Shown: piece by piece, positions 34,765-59,850 of the stretch
Position numbering within the stretch: position 1 is the stretch's first letter
Layout: the number at the start of each line of letters is the position of its first letter
Source of the DNA: Promethearchaeota archaeon Loki_b32
GTDB taxonomy: Archaea; Asgardarchaeota; Lokiarchaeia; Sigyniarchaeales; SOKP01
NCBI GenBank assembly: GCA_005223125.1
Contig: NJBH01000002.1
Location: 171,950-235,949, forward strand
Reading direction: 5' to 3'
DNA: 64,000 bases
The notes under the pieces: model-generated
What the model saw: the letters and a program-made list of their open reading frames with translations, nothing else
The model's database searches: none
Told to the model about the DNA's origin: nothing
Program-made: the position numbers and the translations under genes

Positions 34765-35502
34765 CTACTGAATTATTGCCTTTATCTTAGCGATATATTG
34801 GCCTAGTTTCCTCCCATCTGACTCAGGAACCGCAAGTGCTAAAACCCTATTCTCATCTAAATCATGTAATATGACTGATCCATTCTCTCCACCTATTATA
34901 GAATACTCCATATGACTTTCTAATAAGACACCAGATAAATTATATAATGCTGCAACCATAGCTGAAAGAATTGGTTCAGGCATAGTGGATTGAATTTTAA
35001 TCGGCAATCCATCTTTAGTAATTATTGCTAAAACGAGAGTATTCGGGATTGCTCTCTTTAGACCTTTAAATATTTCTTCTTTAAGAATGTCCGATGTTTC
35101 AATAATTGCAGATACTTTTAGAGCCAATCTTTGTAGTCTATTTATATATGAATCTAATCCTTCGAGTTCCGCCATTTCTCGATTTAAATAAGTTATCATG
35201 GTTATATTTTCTGCCAAAATAGATAGAACAATCTTTTCCTTACCAATAATTAAGTTATAAGATACTTCCTGATTCAGGGAGTCCCTCAGCATTTTAGATG
35301 AAAGAAATACAAGGCTACTATTTGCTGCTGTAACTTCACCTGTTGTCATCTTAATATCTTTTTTGAAAATACTTGCGATTTTTGTACCCTCCGCCGTTCC
35401 AATATTAATACCAATTATGGCTGATGCTGATTCAAGCTCTTTTTCTATTATTTCTAACACATCAGATTTTAATTCTTCTAAAATTTTTTCTTGTTTCTCC
35501 AT
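34765..35502 (-). CDS. Tandem Roadblock/LC7 (MglB/LAMTOR-like) domain protein
   Basis: Two ~120-aa units (GINIGTAEGTKIAS..; LAIITKDGLPI..LSAMVAAL..IIGGENGSVIL..LGQY). Confidence 0.8.
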   Translation of the reverse strand: MEKQEKILEELKSDVLEIIEKELESASAIIGINIGTAEGTKIASIFKKDIKMTTGEVTAANSSLVFLSSKMLRDSLNQEVSYNLIIGKEKIVLSILAENITMITYLNREMAELEGLDSYINRLQRLALKVSAIIETSDILKEEIFKGLKRAIPNTLVLAIITKDGLPIKIQSTMPEPILSAMVAALYNLSGVLLESHMEYSIIGGENGSVILHDLDENRVLALAVPESDGRKLGQYIAKIKAIIQ

Positions 35503-49382: not shown

Positions 49383-49613
49383 TTAATCTTTCTTCTCTTC
49401 TTTTAAACCACTCTTTTCATAAGCTTTCTTTATTGCATCTTTTACTTTAGTCATTATTTGTGGACTTGTAGCTATTTATTGCATAATCGGAGAAACATCT
49501 AAGGGAGACATTTGTGCTTGTTTTGCTTTTATTACACTTTCTACTGTAATCTTCTTTTCTTCTAAACCTAATTTCTTTTCTTCTAAATCTAATCTTCTTT
49601 TTTCAAATTCTTG
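49383..49613 (-). pseudogene. Decapitated coiled-coil gene remnant at the right island junction
   Basis: Manual translation QEFEKRRLDLEEKKLGLEEKKITVESVIKAKQAQMSPLDVSPIMQ*IATSPQIMTKVKDAIKKAYEKSGLKEEKKD*; no start, one internal stop. Confidence 0.5.
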
Positions 49614-49891
49614 TTCCTAAATGCTTGAAAGACCTCGTCAACCAACGGAATTTTTCTTCCATCTTTAGACTTGATTTTCTCAATCTCTTCGAAAGTTAAT
49701 TTACTTATAGAGCTATATTTCTCACCTATTTTGAAATATCTATCATGAAAACAAATTAACTTTTTATCTTTAGTTGCTCGAATATCTGTTTCAATTCCTG
49801 CTCCCATACTTATTGCTTTTTTAAAAGAAGGAATCGTATTCTCAATTTCATACCCCGAAGCTCCTCGATGAGCAAAAATATAAGGTTTCAT
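49589..49891 (-). pseudogene. Glycerophosphodiester phosphodiesterase, N-terminal part truncated by the island
   Basis: IFAHRGASGYEIENTIPSF..IETDIRATKD..CFHD; runs into island sequence and stops. Confidence 0.9.
49614..49789 (+). repeat. Right direct repeat of island (176 bp)
   Basis: Aligns to 41963-42138. Confidence 0.95.
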
Positions 49892-51368: not shown

Positions 51369-51629
51369 ATGATGACAGTTAGTCCACATCCACAAGACTA
51401 TGAGAGAATTTTACAAGATAACCTAAAGTCTGAACTAGAATGGTTGGTAGAAGAATTTGAGCTACTTTTTAAAAATAAAAAAGAAAAAACAAAAGAAGTG
51501 CTAATGTTAGGAAATAAAATTCTAGATAATATCATTGACAATATTAAGACAAGCAACAGTGAAGAATTGATTAATCTACTAGCAATCACTTTAAACAACA
51601 ATGAAACCTCTTATCCAGAATTCTTTTAA
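51369..51629 (+). CDS. Small helical hypothetical protein
   Basis: Strong SD (AGGAGGT) and intact 86-aa frame. Confidence 0.7.
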   Translation: MMTVSPHPQDYERILQDNLKSELEWLVEEFELLFKNKKEKTKEVLMLGNKILDNIIDNIKTSNSEELINLLAITLNNNETSYPEFF

Positions 51630-51903: not shown

Positions 51904-52989
51904 ATGGAAAGAATAATTCTAACGCATTGGAGTTCATCGATCGGTCCAGAACCAATTATACAGTATCCCCCCGAGAAACTCTTCCCTGCAAAAGATCTCT
52001 TCTTAAAAATCTGGGCGAAACATGAATTAAATAAAGAAAATTCCGTAATTGAATTTACCCCTGAGGATGAGGATAACAGTTATGTCTCAGTTATACAGCG
52101 ATTTGAAGGAGAAGTTTACTTCCTCATTTTAGTGTATAGTAAAGAAGATATGCATGATGATATAATCAAGGAATCCCCAGAAATATTAGCTCTTATCAGC
52201 AAAAATTTAATCGAATTGATCAATACAAATAAAATTACACGTACAATATCTGAAGCATATAATACAATAAGAAACTATTCGAAATTAGACGAGGAAGAAA
52301 ATTTAATAAACTTTTTTCAGGACAGAATCAAATACACTATCTTACAAATTCTGAGAAATGGAGTAATATCTAAACAAAAACTCACTAATATTTTAAGACA
52401 TGAATATGGGTTCTCTACTGTAAATATTGATTTAATTTTAATATCCTTCTTTCATGAAAATTTATTAGTAAAAAAAAATGTACCAGGGAGTAAAGAATGC
52501 TTCTTTCTAATAAGAGATCTTTCATGTACTAGAATTCCACCCGATAATTTGCCTTCAGGACAAATAGAAGAAAATTTGTTAAGAAAATTTAAATCGGCCT
52601 TAAAGAAATATTATCAAGAATTCTATAATGCTTCAGATTTCGAAAATAAAACAATAATGCAAACAGTCCTCTTTAATAAAGATGTATTTTCTCTTTTAAA
52701 AACACTCAGAAAAAAGCAAATAACTGTTAATGATTGTTTAAATATTCTAAATAACAAGGAAGAACTATTCAATGAGCTAATAGATAAAAAATTTATTTAT
52801 GAAGCAAAGGGACATGTTTATCTCTTTTCAGATGTACGTTTTATTAAATTCAGTCCATATTACCTTATCGAAAAACTAGTTGATAGATATCAAAACCAAG
52901 AAATATCATTTAATGAATATATAGCACATTTAAAGCTCTTAACCGAGCAGATGGAAGAACCTTTCTCTCTAGATTATGAAATTGTGTAG
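51904..52989 (+). CDS. Longin/uDENN (NPR2/NPRL2-like) protein with winged-helix-like C-terminal region
   Basis: IILTHWSSSIGPEPIIQYPPE..KDLF..KHEL resembles the NPRL2/uDENN N-terminus; ILQILRNGVISKQKLTNIL..LLVKK wH-like segment. Confidence 0.6.
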   Translation: MERIILTHWSSSIGPEPIIQYPPEKLFPAKDLFLKIWAKHELNKENSVIEFTPEDEDNSYVSVIQRFEGEVYFLILVYSKEDMHDDIIKESPEILALISKNLIELINTNKITRTISEAYNTIRNYSKLDEEENLINFFQDRIKYTILQILRNGVISKQKLTNILRHEYGFSTVNIDLILISFFHENLLVKKNVPGSKECFFLIRDLSCTRIPPDNLPSGQIEENLLRKFKSALKKYYQEFYNASDFENKTIMQTVLFNKDVFSLLKTLRKKQITVNDCLNILNNKEELFNELIDKKFIYEAKGHVYLFSDVRFIKFSPYYLIEKLVDRYQNQEISFNEYIAHLKLLTEQMEEPFSLDYEIV

Positions 52990-53075
52990 TTTTATTAAAC
53001 AAGATAAATCTGTTTATCTAAATCTGTAGATTCAGATTTAATTTTAAAAAAAAAATTTAATAAAGTTAATAAGTT

Positions 53076-53786
53076 TCATTCTCGAAGTCCAAAATAAAAC
53101 AACCAAGCCGAAATGACCATGGCAGACCGTATAAATATTAAAATTATACCAGGAGAAAACAAACCATCCATTACAGCACCGAGTATGTATATAAATGCTC
53201 CTGATGATATTAGAAGAAATTTTGTTCTTATTGATCCGGTAGATTTAATCCCTTTATTAAGAAATCCAAATCCGACAAAAATAAGAAGTGATAATAAGAA
53301 CACCAAAGCGGCTATACCCGCTACAGATTCAAAAACTAGATTATCGTTGATTAAATTTTCACCCGCAATTGCAGGTTCTACATATGTAACGGAACCTGAT
53401 AAATCTAGAAAGAGAAACAATTCGAAAATTATACCCAGAATTATGTAAACCGAAAATATAAACCATTTTTTCTTTGGAGTTAGAAGAATAGTACCAATGT
53501 ACATAGCAGGAAGAACAGCTCCAGGAAACCACATCCAATTTATAAGCCCGATTATACCAAATGAATTATCTACATTGGATCCAGTTATTAAGATTGTAAA
53601 AAAATCTAAAACATCTCCCGTATATACTAGAGCAGCAAAAACATAAATTAAACCTAAATATATTAAGAGCTTTGATTTCTTTTTTAGTGCTTTAATAACA
53701 AAGAATAAACCAAAAACAAGTGAGAAAAAGAAAACTCCTAATGCTGTAATCCCACTCAACCACCCAACATAAGAAAGTGCGATCAT
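53076..53786 (-). CDS. Multi-pass (about 7 TM) membrane sensor-like protein
   Basis: About seven hydrophobic helices, no soluble output domain; SD AGGTGA. Confidence 0.65.
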   Translation of the reverse strand: MIALSYVGWLSGITALGVFFFSLVFGLFFVIKALKKKSKLLIYLGLIYVFAALVYTGDVLDFFTILITGSNVDNSFGIIGLINWMWFPGAVLPAMYIGTILLTPKKKWFIFSVYIILGIIFELFLFLDLSGSVTYVEPAIAGENLINDNLVFESVAGIAALVFLLSLLIFVGFGFLNKGIKSTGSIRTKFLLISSGAFIYILGAVMDGLFSPGIILIFIRSAMVISAWLFYFGLRE

Positions 53787-53993
53787 TAATCACCTAATTA
53801 TGAAATCTATTTTTTATAAAAATATATTTTAATAACAAGAACTAATTTCATTTTAGAATTAATAAATATTATGGGTAATGCTTAGAATGAAAAAAACTCT
53901 TTTCATTTTAATTTTAACCCTTGGATTAATAGTAGATATAAATTTGATATGTTTTAGGATTTATATCTTATAATAATTCTTTTTTTTTAAAAA

Positions 53994-54686
53994 CTAAAGA
54001 GTTAGGATCGAAGTATCTGAAATTTTTTTATCGATTGGGGCTTTACCATCTCCATATATGTGATATAATCCCGTTCTTCGTGCTATCTCATAAAAACTGC
54101 GATAGATATCCTTTTCTTGATCAAATAGTGCGCAAGTTTTATAAATTAATGGATTCCACATATTTAACTCATGTTGAGGGTCATACCATAAGTTTTCTTG
54201 TTTTAAAATTTGAATAAAATCTTCATGGTCGATTATCTCTTTAAGATCTTGTTTATTGAGCATGACTATAAATGGGATAAATTTAATGAGCTTTCCTTTT
54301 GTTATGTTTTTTAATTCTAATAAGAATTCAATATTATCTTCAAAGAATTTTATTTGGGAATCAACAACAAAAATTACAGCATCAGTTTCGGCATCAAGCT
54401 TATTAAAAACTTTAATTCTTAATGAACTGAAACCTTTTTGACCCGCTACTGTATATACTCTATAGTATACCTTCCTCTTTTTTGTTGATTGAAATATTCC
54501 TCTATCAAAATAAAGTGTTGCACCACTTGTCCTGTCGATTTTTTGTAAATCACTTACAGGAATTATTTCTCTATTACCTTCCTTAGTTAAATTGTAGAGA
54601 GTTTCTAATATGGTAGTCTTTCCACTTCTTGACATACCATAATATACTATTTTAAAAAAGATGTTTCCTTCTTTATATTGAACCAT
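53994..54686 (-). CDS. MglA/Arf-like small GTPase
   Basis: KIVYYGMSRSGKTT (G1), TLYFD (G2), YTVAGQ (MglA-type G3), DAVIFVVDS, NKQDL (G4), TCA (G5). Confidence 0.9.
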   Translation of the reverse strand: MVQYKEGNIFFKIVYYGMSRSGKTTILETLYNLTKEGNREIIPVSDLQKIDRTSGATLYFDRGIFQSTKKRKVYYRVYTVAGQKGFSSLRIKVFNKLDAETDAVIFVVDSQIKFFEDNIEFLLELKNITKGKLIKFIPFIVMLNKQDLKEIIDHEDFIQILKQENLWYDPQHELNMWNPLIYKTCALFDQEKDIYRSFYEIARRTGLYHIYGDGKAPIDKKISDTSILTL

Positions 54687-54894: not shown

Positions 54895-55851
54895 ATGGAA
54901 AGCACAGAATTCAAAATTAACGAATATCTTTCATTGGAATTATGGGGGGGTAAGACATTTATTTATGTGAATGGTAAGAAATTCAAGCAGTGTAAATATG
55001 TATTACTCAATATCCCTATCGAAGATATTCAGAAGTACTCCTCTATAGAATCTATTGATGAAATCATATACAACCTAGACCAATCATTAGAGGAATATCC
55101 AGAAATTCTCACTCCTGAAGTAGAGTTCTGGTCACACTGTTCAAACTTACAAGCATGGGCAGAAAATAACTATAATACTGATATATTAGATTCATTTCTA
55201 TCTTTCCCCTTATTAAAAAAGTTGACAAAAGAGGGAGATTTTCAAGCTAAAAGAGTCTTCAAAGAAGAAATCGTGAAACGATTAATAAGAGGAGATATTA
55301 ATAATGTATTATATCTAATTAATGAAGGATATCTAGAATTTTTAACAAATGAAGAAATAACCTCTGTTCTCTCTTCTGAAAACTGCCTTCTATTCGAAAA
55401 AATATTTAATATCTTTAAAAAAGGCAATTATGACCAATTTAATGAAGCTGATATCGTGTATGACGATATTGGTAAATATCTATATCTGAAAATTGAAAAG
55501 AAATTAAAGAAAGCGTTTGATACGAAAAGTATAGAGGATTTATATACCTTTCTCAATTACCAGATGCTAGACGTATTATCTGAAGAAGAAATTCTATTAT
55601 TATTCGAACACCCTATGAATTTACTGGAAAAAACATTAAATATACTAAATGGTATTGAATATAAAGAGGTAAAAATAGGAGAATATGGATTTTTCTCGGA
55701 AAAAGTCGAGAAAATTCTCGGAGATAGAATTAAGGAAAAAATCTTAGATGTGATTCACAAAGGAAACATTAAATACTCTGTATTATGGGGATTAGACCTA
55801 TTAAGATATCTAGAAAATGAGGATACGGAATACTTAGACTATTTAAAGTAA
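54895..55851 (+). CDS. Hypothetical protein with the N-terminal domain I recall from Lokiarchaeal LRR-type proteins
   Basis: EFKINEYLSL..KTFIYVNG.KF.QCKYVLLNIP..EFWSHCSNLQAWAENNY..FPLLKKL, then helical repeats. Confidence 0.6.
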   Translation: MESTEFKINEYLSLELWGGKTFIYVNGKKFKQCKYVLLNIPIEDIQKYSSIESIDEIIYNLDQSLEEYPEILTPEVEFWSHCSNLQAWAENNYNTDILDSFLSFPLLKKLTKEGDFQAKRVFKEEIVKRLIRGDINNVLYLINEGYLEFLTNEEITSVLSSENCLLFEKIFNIFKKGNYDQFNEADIVYDDIGKYLYLKIEKKLKKAFDTKSIEDLYTFLNYQMLDVLSEEEILLLFEHPMNLLEKTLNILNGIEYKEVKIGEYGFFSEKVEKILGDRIKEKILDVIHKGNIKYSVLWGLDLLRYLENEDTEYLDYLK

Positions 55852-55881
55852 ACTATTCCTATAAAAAAAAATAAAAAAAAA

Positions 55882-58800
55882 TTATAAGGCTCCAGAGTTT
55901 AGTAACCTATATATCTCTGAAAGACTTGTAGTACCAAACATAGCCTCAATAATGAAATCAAGTCGTCTTACCATTAATCTGTTAAAAAGAAGATCTCCCT
56001 CAATAGCTAACCCAAGGTCTCTTACTAATTCTGGACTTACATAACCATAATCTTTATTAGATAACGCTGTGAATATGTCTGGTGCAAATAATAACTGAAA
56101 TAACCATCTAAAAGCATTACCAGATGGACGTCCACCAGCACTAGGATCGAGATAAGGCAACTGTGAAGCCCCTTTTATAACGTCAATTAACTTCTCCTTA
56201 GTGATCAATCCGTCTGCGACCATCGCAATGAGTTGTGGCTTTAAATATAATTCAAACAAGATACTATTATACTCATCGAAACTCCCAAGAGTCCTACCGA
56301 GCAAACTCTCAACTGTCTTTCTGCTATACGGGATGATTTCAACTTGGAAAGATCTATCCTTCCAATTCTTCATAACTTCATGAGCACTTTGCTTAGTCCT
56401 GTAAAAATAGTTCTTAAGGTCGTGACTTTGCACTCCTGATTTTGCCAACTGAATCAAATAATTTGTGAGAACTTCACTCCTGATATCCTTCCAATTCCTA
56501 CTAGGATAATAATAATCTAAGATTTTATTAATGACACCTGAAGACTCTCTGAAATACCATTGTAAGTCTGCCTTCTCCAAACCAAAACGTATTGCTGAAT
56601 CTAGATTCTCCTTTGAAATATAAATATAATACTTTGCTTCATCCACCTCTATTGGAACATTACTTATCCCCTCAACGATAGCCCTTATCCTGCGATCATC
56701 ATATTTTCTCCCTATTATGGCGTTAAACTTAAGATTCTTTTCTAGATTATAATACATCCTACCATTGATCCTATTGACATAAATTGTATAGAAAATCTCC
56801 AGATTATCTCTTTGCTTCTTTGTCGCAGCCATATCAATAGGAACAGACTCAAAATAATCATTGAATCGGGCATTCTTAGGAATGGCACCTTCCGCTTTCA
56901 AGGATTTAAAATAAGCAATTCTGAAGTATACATTACTCGTACGTTTAAGACTCTCTAAAAGAGATATACTATGCCTACCTGTTATACTACGCATAGACCT
57001 AGGGCTCGTCGCATAACCTACTTCAAAAATAGGCTTTGCTAACTTAATACCAGTAAACAAATCTCGTTTCTGCATTAATGCGTAGATGACATAGAAATCT
57101 TTACGTCCTAATAAGCCCAATCTTTTTGCAGTTCTCATCAATCTGTACTGCAACTTTACTCTACGAGAAATAATAGGATCTCTGTCAAGAGGAGTTCGCC
57201 AACTCATGGTATCCATTTTCTTAAGATGACTCGTTACTTTTCTAAAGCTGTTTACGTATATACTATTAGGACGATTTTGGATAAACCAATCACAGAACTT
57301 GAGGGGGTTCATATATTCTCGGTTATTGAAGAGTAATTCCTTCTCTTCATCTGTCATCTCGTCAATTGCTTTATCAAACTCTTCTATTATTCTATCATTC
57401 TCGGACATTGCAGGCTTTGGAGGTCGTGGAACCAGATAATCAGGATTAGTTGGATTCTTTGGATCCCATGAAAGAGTATTCCCTTTCATATCAAGTTTCC
57501 CTAATAACTCTGAAGCTTCAAGCTCGCGTTCATGCTCTTGCATTGCTTTTCTATACATTTCTATATGAATTTCATCAAATACAGGTCCTACAGCAACTGT
57601 CAGACCACCATATGTGCTTCCTAAATTTTTAGTCTCTTCAACCATTTGAGATGTCGGAACAGGTCTTTGTGTCTCATCAAGCTTAGCAATATAAGCTTGA
57701 AGTTCACTAATAAGCTTAGGTCCAAGGGTGTCTATCTTTTGTGGTTGTATGTGTTCTTTCTTTAATACCGCTCCAAACATATCCTTTATGGAATCGACGC
57801 CTTCTACCGATGTTCCGGCGACTATCATGATGTTCCCGAGCGCTGTACCAATTGAACCTCCAAAACCTCCTGCCATGGCTCCGGCAAACATCAAAATGGT
57901 CGAAAGTCCTTCCTTGATATATTCTTGTCTTATCTGTTGTTGAGCTTTAGCTTCTTGAGTAGCTCGTACGTTCTCTATATTGTCCTGTATTTGAGTCTCA
58001 ATACTATTTAGCTGAATGTTGGTATCTACTTGAGTTCTGCCTCCGAAACCTGCTCGCATGAAAGAAGTTACACTGCTTAGGAATTGTTCACGCCCGCTCT
58101 CGGCAAGTCCGCTCCAAAGTATCTGTGAAATCTCACTTCCTCCCATATCTTTTATCTTGTTGGTGACGTAGGCTTCAATCATGGGGTCCACATAGAGTTC
58201 TTCTAAGGTTTCGGTAATTACAGCACAGGTGACCTTGAACATATTGAAGGCAAGACTTCGTCCCGATGTTTTTAGTGCTTGGTCAGCCATAGTAGATATT
58301 TTCTCATAGGCTTTAGAAGCCGCACCAAACTTAGTTAAAGACTTCGAGGCTGCGTTAGCATAAACATTCGCCTCAACACCGGCAAAAGCTTTATTTAAGC
58401 CCCATGTTGCGCCTATAACAATAAGCGTGCTGGTAATTGTTATAAATGTGGTATAGCAAATTTCACTCAAGCGTTCCTGAGTACGCTCCGCGATTGTATA
58501 TTGGTATGTATACTCTAAGATGGACTGATGAATCGATTGCATGGTGGCAATGCGTTGCGCCTCTTCAGGAGTAATATCGCCTCTCTCAACCGTTATATCC
58601 CGATATTTTTCAATATAGAATTCAAGGACAATATAAGCATCATACCAATAAATACCTTTATTATCTTCTTTTGCACCATTAATTTCGGAATTAAAGTACA
58701 AATCTTTATCTGAAGTAAAAGTAACCTCTCCAGTGATATTATTATACTCGTGGCTACTTACAAAATCTCCTAAAGGTCTCTTATTTCCTAATGTATCTAC

Positions 58801-59850
58801 TAACCATGCCTCAATTTTTACAATATCTGACATGAGAGGGCGATTAGTAATATATTCTTCAGGAATTAATTGAATGGTTCCTTCATCTGTAGTATCATAT
58901 ACTTTGTAAATGTGATAATACTCATCTTTTAACAACTTACCATCTTCATGATTAGCTATATATTCCTCATGATCAACATAAATCGGATAATTTAGGTAAA
59001 ACTCCGGAGCTACCATGGAATCAGAATCAACAAACTGAAGTGAAGGTTTAACTGCCATCATATATGGAATAATCCGATCATAAGACTTATCCTCGTTTGA
59101 ACTGGTCTCCGCGTAAATCTGGTCTTCAAGGTACATAATAGAATTTCTCATGAACTTGACGCGATGATCTCGTGGTTTAGTTGCAGAAATTGTCCCATAG
59201 CTTCCCAAATCATATTCAACAACTTGATAGAAGAATGGATCTAATCGCTCACCCCAATCTGAATAGGCCAAATAACTACGAGTTTGTTGCGAATAATCTA
59301 ATACAATGTTCTTAACTTCAGTACCGAAATTAGTGGTCTTTTCTACTCCAGGTGGAGCAAGAATCACCTGACCAGTATAAATATATTTATCTGTTTCTGC
59401 TTTAACTTCAGAATATATCCCACCTCTGGTCCCTTGAAGTGTATGAGTCATAGTTTCAGAGAAATATTCATCCTTCCACCATCTCTCCGATAATGTCTTA
59501 TCACTATCACTATCATAATTCTCGTTATAGGTTGTCTGATAAGCCATATAATTGTTTCTTTTTTTTGTCTGCTCAATTTGGTTAATAGAATTGATAAGCC
59601 AATAAGTAAGCATTCCAACAACAAACCCAATGGCAGTACCAAGACCCGGGACGGATGAGCCTGCTGCTGAGAATAGAGCAACTAAGCCAATTCCAACAAC
59701 TTTACCCACAACATAAGCAGTTAGTTGAGCGGCTACTTGGAATGCGATATCACCAAAGATTTTTTGTGGAGTAAGCATTTCAATAAACTGATGGGAAGTA
59801 ATTCTCATCGCTAATTCGATTAATTCACTTGATTTACCAGAGTAATCCAT
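55882..59850 (-). CDS. Large (1322 aa) membrane-associated protein with Gly/Ala-rich TM helices and a C-terminal GIY-YIG-like region; probably N-terminally truncated
   Basis: Gly-zipper hydrophobic blocks; VIYAL..EVGYAT..GRH..LEIFY..KFN; GC-richer than flanks; only 5 open codons upstream of the ATG and no SD. Confidence 0.55.
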   Translation of the reverse strand: MDYSGKSSELIELAMRITSHQFIEMLTPQKIFGDIAFQVAAQLTAYVVGKVVGIGLVALFSAAGSSVPGLGTAIGFVVGMLTYWLINSINQIEQTKKRNNYMAYQTTYNENYDSDSDKTLSERWWKDEYFSETMTHTLQGTRGGIYSEVKAETDKYIYTGQVILAPPGVEKTTNFGTEVKNIVLDYSQQTRSYLAYSDWGERLDPFFYQVVEYDLGSYGTISATKPRDHRVKFMRNSIMYLEDQIYAETSSNEDKSYDRIIPYMMAVKPSLQFVDSDSMVAPEFYLNYPIYVDHEEYIANHEDGKLLKDEYYHIYKVYDTTDEGTIQLIPEEYITNRPLMSDIVKIEAWLVDTLGNKRPLGDFVSSHEYNNITGEVTFTSDKDLYFNSEINGAKEDNKGIYWYDAYIVLEFYIEKYRDITVERGDITPEEAQRIATMQSIHQSILEYTYQYTIAERTQERLSEICYTTFITITSTLIVIGATWGLNKAFAGVEANVYANAASKSLTKFGAASKAYEKISTMADQALKTSGRSLAFNMFKVTCAVITETLEELYVDPMIEAYVTNKIKDMGGSEISQILWSGLAESGREQFLSSVTSFMRAGFGGRTQVDTNIQLNSIETQIQDNIENVRATQEAKAQQQIRQEYIKEGLSTILMFAGAMAGGFGGSIGTALGNIMIVAGTSVEGVDSIKDMFGAVLKKEHIQPQKIDTLGPKLISELQAYIAKLDETQRPVPTSQMVEETKNLGSTYGGLTVAVGPVFDEIHIEMYRKAMQEHERELEASELLGKLDMKGNTLSWDPKNPTNPDYLVPRPPKPAMSENDRIIEEFDKAIDEMTDEEKELLFNNREYMNPLKFCDWFIQNRPNSIYVNSFRKVTSHLKKMDTMSWRTPLDRDPIISRRVKLQYRLMRTAKRLGLLGRKDFYVIYALMQKRDLFTGIKLAKPIFEVGYATSPRSMRSITGRHSISLLESLKRTSNVYFRIAYFKSLKAEGAIPKNARFNDYFESVPIDMAATKKQRDNLEIFYTIYVNRINGRMYYNLEKNLKFNAIIGRKYDDRRIRAIVEGISNVPIEVDEAKYYIYISKENLDSAIRFGLEKADLQWYFRESSGVINKILDYYYPSRNWKDIRSEVLTNYLIQLAKSGVQSHDLKNYFYRTKQSAHEVMKNWKDRSFQVEIIPYSRKTVESLLGRTLGSFDEYNSILFELYLKPQLIAMVADGLITKEKLIDVIKGASQLPYLDPSAGGRPSGNAFRWLFQLLFAPDIFTALSNKDYGYVSPELVRDLGLAIEGDLLFNRLMVRRLDFIIEAMFGTTSLSEIYRLLNSGAL

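Follow-up and report, generated by a model that had tools for sequence, protein, structure and literature searches.

Group 1 MglA and MglB constitute a bacterial polarity switch (6h17, 3t12; PMC3199381, PMC4316618). The MglA proteins of this group carry an invariant arginine beside the threonine of the G2 motif, and their signature is a TVPGQ G3 motif, with threonine replacing aspartate together with the catalytic glutamine (PMC4316618). MglA relatives without the intrinsic arginine are already known as groups 2–5, an example being the conservon GTPase CvnD, and the mechanism of their GTPase-activating proteins (GAPs) is unknown (PMC4316618). The actinobacterial conservon CvnA-D joins such a GTPase to a membrane sensor kinase, a Roadblock protein and a DUF742 protein. 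NPRL2 and NPRL3 of GATOR1 (Npr2 and Npr3 of SEACIT), which act on RagA/Gtr1, are described as a longin domain with at least two winged helix-turn-helix (wHTH) domains (PMC5681675). NPRL2-like longin families (10.1101/2020.10.19.343400) and MglA-like GTPases (10.1101/2024.02.28.582541; PMC10933270) have been reported from Asgard archaea, where GTPase genes generally lie outside the operons of their longin and Roadblock genes (PMC10933270). Here we describe a 64,000-nucleotide stretch of Promethearchaeota archaeon Loki_b32 (hereafter the window; G000:C21:171950-235949, G000 being its 4.1 Mb genome of Lokiarchaeia/Promethearchaeota type) in which genes for a longin protein, a putative seven-transmembrane (7TM) protein and a small GTPase adjoin one another. 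The GTPase is, by sequence and predicted fold, an MglA-family protein, and its arginine-finger position is substituted. At about even chances, the three genes are most likely inherited neighbours with the GTPase partner encoded elsewhere, rather than a dedicated circuit.

All three open reading frames (ORFs) are present exactly at the coordinates of a preliminary description of the window, which had named them a longin protein, a 7TM protein and an MglA-like GTPase; fold and hydropathy agree with those names. The 361-amino-acid (aa) gene is convergent with the other two, which are co-directional and separated by 207 nucleotides (nt). The GTPase motifs also stand where they had been read:

51904..52989, + strand: longin protein with two wHTH units, 361 aa (AlphaFold2 model, fold matches)
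53076..53786, - strand: membrane protein of about seven helices, 236 aa (hydropathy)
53994..54686, - strand: MglA-family small GTPase, paralogue A, 230 aa (sequence and fold matches)
54612..54638, - strand: P-loop (G1) GMSRSGKTT, whose Ser-Arg pair is confined to a few close relatives
54516..54533, - strand: switch I RTSGAT (R52-T-S-G-A56-T57), with Ala56 at the MglA arginine-finger position
54438..54452, - strand: G3 motif TVAGQ, with Thr for the usual Asp and the catalytic Gln83 retained

In Pfam the GTPase matches only a generic Arf/small-GTPase model (45.9 bits). A phmmer search of the PDB places MglA first (58 bits, E 1e-14), with Arl3 as the next family (5e-4). Its AlphaFold model has a mean predicted local distance difference test score (pLDDT) of 84.6, and in a VIA fold comparison 11 of the 11 top matches are MglA (Z 21.6-23.3, 180-188 residues, 23-30% identity), followed by Asgard ArfR at Z 18.5 and Ras/Rab proteins at about 18. 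The best match in both sequence and fold is thus group 1 MglA (28-30% identity). The GTPase shares with that group the threonine for aspartate in G3 (TVxGQ), the catalytic glutamine and TLxFD in G2; TVAGQ occurs in G3 of nearly all 120 homologues. The GTPase retains Thr57 and NKxD as well as the P-loop and the glutamine of TxxGQ; the catalytic glutamine and G motifs are invariant. Unlike group 1 MglA, it has additional inserts, one of seven residues between G1 and G2 and another behind G4, its C-terminal tail (YGDGxAP) is conserved, and no Roadblock/MglB gene adjoins it. The subfamily, which comprises paralogues A and B, is archaeal and restricted to Lokiarchaeia, unlike bacterial group 1. Gtr1_RagA is absent from the 11 Pfam matches, and the 230-aa model shows just a helix and a disordered tail beyond the G domain, with no C-terminal Roadblock domain. 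The GTPase is MglA-type, not Rag-type, and its family is a highly conserved Lokiarchaeial offshoot of MglA. The absence of an adjacent MglB, already remarked on in the preliminary description, was borne out by a PF03259 scan of the genome, in which the nearest Roadblock gene lies 18.5 kb off (window 34768-35502, - strand). That gene encodes a 245-aa protein with a Roadblock/LC7 domain at residues 19-104 (29 bits), and its length leaves room for a second domain.

The residue preceding the G2 threonine is Ala or Thr in 120 of 120 close homologues, within a near-fixed switch I motif (I-D-[RK]-x-S-G-[AT]-T-L-Y-F-D). Four canonical MglA-like paralogues in the same genome read xGRTLFFD. In the alignment SGAT stands opposite their VGRT, with the extra residues further upstream, so the arginine-finger position is truly substituted and the GTPase is, as first described, without the canonical cis arginine. 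The preliminary description had also called the G1 motif atypical and its arginine a possible cis finger. The sequence is as stated, but GMSRSGKTT is found in just 2 of 113 sequences, the consensus being GMAGSGKTT; it is no family trait, and the G1 arginine was rejected as a cis finger on account of this rarity. As the G motifs are kept and the intrinsic arginine finger is lost, the GTPase would be expected to bind GTP, to hydrolyse it slowly on its own and to rely on a partner acting in trans.

Genomes of the window's family hold two copies of the GTPase. The A copies are 63-91% identical among orthologues, and the B copies are 62-68% identical to A and 73-92% identical across the genera sampled. 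The finger position is Ala in A and Ser in B, where group 1 MglA has its invariant arginine. Groups 2-5 likewise lack the arginine and differ from the subfamily in that their G3 reads GTPGQ and Thr takes the place of the finger. The combination of Ala/Ser with a group-1-type TVAGQ looks like an independent loss of the arginine in a group-1-like lineage. Among the matches listed, the full-length A-type copies belong to genera g1 and g4, and g10 contributes a copy of 60% identity; every family f1 genus checked yields B-type matches. A may stem from a duplication of B in the common ancestor of the genera that carry A. The B gene stands in a cluster of its own, [Zn-ribbon][TFB-like 340 aa][79 aa][GTPase B] (G000:C61:107000-114219, L028; also L036-L043), which is convergent with an operon of a canonical MglA-like GRT GTPase (203 aa), a 298-aa protein without a family and a 333-aa Roadblock protein. 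This cluster is kept in six genera, more widely than the locus of A. A and B have the arginine-less switch I in common, and a partner of Roadblock type, encoded at another locus, must therefore be seriously considered for A too. In nearly all assemblies the contig breaks off 0.4-1.7 kb past the Roadblock gene of the B cluster, which points to a non-assembling element there.

The 361-aa protein has no sequence match in Pfam, NCBIfam or the PDB. An exhaustive search returned no more than 130 cluster representatives, most of them 340-380 aa long. The family is Lokiarchaeial, and a genome has several paralogues of it. An AlphaFold2 model built with a 53-member alignment (pLDDT 86.7) predicts a longin topology for residues 1-130 (beta-beta-alpha-beta-beta-beta-alpha-alpha) and two wHTH units behind it, at about 130-211 and 245-316. 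The family profile hits ArsR-type wHTH proteins of the PDB in the C-terminal half (E 9e-5). In the VIA comparison the best match is the Lokiarchaeal Roadblock-Longin protein 8yqg (Z 12.9 over 128 residues), followed by Lst4 (11.2), NPRL2/Npr2 chains (about 10) and many other longins (8-9). The closest longin-domain match is thus from the same phylum, although the architectures differ, 8yqg pairing a Roadblock with a longin domain (PMC10933270) and the window protein a longin domain with two wHTH units. Foldseek with the whole model lists GATOR1 chains in its top rows (probability 0.99, E 1.1e-3) and nothing below E 1e-3.

The predicted layout agrees with the published description of NPRL2/NPRL3: the order of longin and winged helices is shared, and the lengths are similar (361 aa against about 380 aa for NPRL2). 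To this extent the earlier naming of the protein as NPRL2-like stands; a profile link and a conserved longin arginine were not recovered. Pfam NPR2/NPR3 gave no match at E up to 1, NCBIfam gave none, and a sequence link to GATOR1 chains was rejected after the 53-member profile recovered none from the PDB with a limit of E 10. Neither an NPRL3-like nor a DEPDC5-like partner was seen, no search having been made for the latter, and the partner system of NPRL2 is a Rag heterodimer, whereas the GTPase beside the longin gene here is MglA-type. The catalytic arginine of the human NPRL2 longin domain is Arg78. The present family has near-invariant W9, G14, P22, H40 and S62 in the longin domain, and no arginine in residues 1-130 is conserved across it. 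Arg66, in the beta4-beta5 turn, varies even between orthologues, R3 and R113 are conserved in orthologues only, and no longin-domain arginine separates the orthologues of GTPase-A-bearing genomes from those of genomes lacking GTPase A. The suggestion that the longin protein supplies an arginine in trans is not borne out by this pattern. Two runs of complex prediction, pairing the GTPase (alignment A2) and the longin protein (A1), both scored 0.00 and carry no weight either way. As a rule, longin platforms work as dimers. The longin and wHTH module also occurs within giant ORFs of 2095-2678 aa; G053 has a tandem array of five, spaced by about 8.3 kb:

G053:C9:430355-464784; G092:C1:414822-415907; G125:C60:79540-80583: giant ORFs with the longin and wHTH module

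Hydropathy shows about seven hydrophobic segments in the 236-aa protein, which carries no soluble domain; this agrees with its earlier description as a 7TM protein without an output domain. Its 131 homologues are Asgard and unnamed, and none has a precomputed Pfam domain; the family is Asgard-specific and multi-copy (2-18 copies per genome in the genomes searched). HisKA_7TM (PF16927) was hinted at by one paralogue (E 1.1e-4, below cut-off), an atlas lead (0.86) and one UniRef name. The window protein, 18 orthologues and 11 mid252 proteins (see below) gave no match to it, and membership is not established. Some paralogues are longer (340-376 aa) and have a C-terminal RING/C1-like zinc finger, for which the Pfam matches (E 2e-4 to 6e-4) fall short of the cut-off:

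L044:2646-3728 and L045:1880-2905, - strand: long 7TM paralogues with zinc finger (sub-cut-off Pfam matches)

Two further co-directional pairs, 7TM then GTPase, are found in the window's genome (G000:C21:99897-101289, L050; G000:C39:33863-35771, L051). The GTPases beside the 7TM genes of this genome belong to different families, one MglA-like, one a 174-aa Arf/Roc-like protein and one a 349-aa Rab-like protein. The last has a C-terminal Ras/Rab domain (156 bits), and its pairing with a 7TM gene recurs in G092 (L046).

Each protein served as a query against 151 genomes of the class, and 20 and a further 12 loci were read. Linkage of GTPase A to the longin gene is restricted to three genera of one family, with a gap between the two of either about 0.9-1 kb or 30-80 nt. 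In genera g1 and g4 the gene order is GDPD, VTT/DedA, s86, longin, a variable slot, GTPase A, Fer4, CCG, ferredoxin and HcyBio+CBS, and the two flanks, the housekeeping one towards Fer4 and the one towards the longin gene, are equally conserved. The slot is most often occupied by a 252-aa gene, here called mid252, which is co-directional with the longin gene and 80-120 nt from it, also in relatives without the GTPase. It holds the window's 7TM gene, on the other strand, in about nine g1 genomes, it is empty in at least ten genomes, in which the GTPase and longin genes are 30-80 nt apart, and it holds a short-chain dehydrogenase in g6. An hhalign comparison shows mid252 to be remotely homologous to the family of the window's 7TM protein (Prob 97.6%, E 4e-12, 224 columns). 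The block occurs without the GTPase in genus g6 and in three genomes of the window's own genus (G001, G041 and G094), and in g3, g5 and family f2 there is no GTPase and the longin orthologues stand among unrelated genes. Synteny within Lokiarchaeia, which the preliminary description had proposed as a check, thus returned the adjacency in three genera, but inside a larger block of unrelated housekeeping genes, each part of the trio being dispensable. An enrichment of longin genes near GTPase genes in G000 was suggested by a hand count and dropped after a permutation test: 0 of 10 members of the longin family are immediate neighbours of a GTPase and 2 of 10 lie within three genes of one (P 0.17-0.41).

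Directly upstream of the longin gene lies a small ORF that keeps this place family-wide, an s86 orthologue being found there in 16 of 20 related loci and in four further loci. It has no significant Pfam match and no known domain:

51369..51629, + strand: s86, small helical ORF, 86 aa

Of the GDPD gene the window has a 100-aa N-terminal fragment (49589-49891); at the corresponding place in their blocks, relatives have an intact gene with a product of about 243 aa. Right of the GTPase gene, window 54895-59850 holds a 318-aa ORF without a family and a 1322-aa ORF, with a GC content of 37.6% against about 27%, at the place where relatives carry the Fer4, CCG, ferredoxin and HcyBio genes; the segment is probably an insertion. 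The contig stops where the window stops.

How the GTPase would be turned off, and by which partner, can be read from these data in several ways. Loss of the finger might be compensated in cis, Arg52 (or Lys at its position) reaching the gamma-phosphate from a lengthened and flexible switch I, with hydrolysis either intrinsic or positioned by MglB. A pairwise HMMER alignment with M. xanthus MglA does match DR to DR and treats TSGA as an insertion, and residues 53-56 have a pLDDT below 50, consistent with a loop that is predicted to be flexible. The Arg52 position is R/K in most A orthologues and in most of the 120 close homologues, with a few differing farther upstream. The canonical paralogues of the same genome, however, put Ala56 and not Arg52 opposite the finger, and at the upstream position many A orthologues carry Lys, genus g10 has Ser and paralogue B, which is just as conserved, has Met. 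As a result no cis arginine is conserved subfamily-wide and Arg52 is not a family-wide catalytic residue, and we regard this route as decidedly improbable. The full proto-GATOR circuit of the preliminary description, with an NPRL2-like longin protein giving the arginine finger in trans and the 7TM protein as receptor, draws on the missing cis arginine, on the longin and tandem wHTH layout (PMC5681675) and on the GATOR1 chains heading the Foldseek list. It is opposed by the longin domain itself, in which arginine is neither conserved family-wide nor tracks the presence of the GTPase; by the missing Pfam NPR2 match; by an NPRL2 Z score tied with those of many other longins; and by a GTPase of MglA rather than Rag type that has no C-terminal Roadblock domain. 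What survives of that proposal is the arginine-less GTPase, the NPRL2-like layout and a recurrent linkage, the last embedded in a longer block, and the circuit as a whole appears very improbable.

A weaker form of association, in which the trio would be a membrane-associated GTPase module, dispenses with an NPRL2-type finger: the longin-wHTH protein would dock or regulate the GTPase in the role of guanine nucleotide exchange factor, GAP co-factor or scaffold, and the 7TM protein would be its anchor or sensor. We consider such a module unlikely, although it is the most probable of the alternatives, and the points in its favour are also those that weigh against mere inheritance of neighbours. 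GTPase A is convergent to a longin orthologue wherever the contig is long enough (about 55 genomes), that is, in every assessable genome that has GTPase A, and the trio has outlasted three independent rearrangements of its flanks (the right flank of the window, the insertions in L016/L020, and L017). The caution of the preliminary description that the linkage may be chance was in this respect too pessimistic, though right to be guarded about co-function. The slot is usually held by one 7TM superfamily, and the window's lineage has swapped the ancestral copy for a paralogue on the opposite strand; such a replacement is improbable as a random insertion, given that the 7TM family makes up only about 0.1-0.4% of genes. 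In G000 three of four 7TM-family genes lie immediately beside a small GTPase gene (permutation P about 1e-4), as do two of four in G092. Longin domains are established GTPase platforms (PMC3747258, PMC10933270), and the fold of this one is nearest to GTPase-regulating longins (Lokiarchaeal Roadblock-Longin, Lst4, NPRL2). The co-directional arrangement of longin and mid252 in most relatives, including those without the GTPase, has also been counted on the side of the module. Against the module, the linkage is confined to one family-level clade and lies inside a longer collinear block, each component is dispensable, and the longin and GTPase genes, being convergent, are not co-transcribed. In two other genomes the adjacency of 7TM and GTPase genes stays at chance level, with about 1 of 17 loci (within 2 kb) in G053 and about 1 of 11 in G115. 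Eight orthologues of the window's 7TM gene elsewhere include one with a GTPase as immediate neighbour and two more with one within 3 kb, their neighbours being mostly unrelated, and the 7TM-GTPase signal is thus suggestive of something real in some genomes but not general. A still stronger proposal makes the 7TM protein, the longin-wHTH protein and the arginine-less, MglA-derived GTPase one membrane-coupled switch in Lokiarchaeia, of a design between MglA/MglB and Rag/GATOR-type systems, with the other 7TM-GTPase pairs as variations on it. We judge this proposal improbable.

The conservon offers a parallel for such a membrane-coupled arrangement, since it too brings a membrane protein and an arginine-less MglA-family GTPase near a gene of the Roadblock/longin superfamily. 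Unlike in the conservon, the 7TM protein has no kinase domain, there is no DUF742 protein, the genes are not a single operon and their linkage is much less conserved. Under the reading that we favour, that of inherited neighbours, GTPase A sits in a turnover-prone slot region between the gene for the longin and wHTH protein and a housekeeping block. The neighbouring longin protein would then be one candidate platform for the GTPase, and proteins of Roadblock/MglB type from other loci have at least an equal claim to be its partners; the conserved cluster at paralogue B, with its Roadblock gene, would supply an example.

We have not found described in the literature the A/B subfamily, with its group-1-type G3, Ala/Ser at the finger position and conserved tail, nor the position of A next to a longin-wHTH gene and a 7TM slot. 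What is firmly gained is modest, namely a defined arginine-less A/B subfamily of archaeal MglA and, adjoining it, a mapped, turnover-prone slot. The regulation of the many Asgard small GTPases is an open question of eukaryogenesis, and gene order seldom pairs Asgard regulators with GTPases (PMC10933270). This locus provides one concrete, clonable pair, a conserved arginine-less GTPase and a neighbour with the NPRL2/NPRL3 layout. A negative outcome for this pair would serve as a warning against treating Asgard gene neighbourhoods as circuits. If it is true that the longin protein controls the GTPase, longin-based control of GTPases would predate eukaryotes, and would do so in a defined pair.

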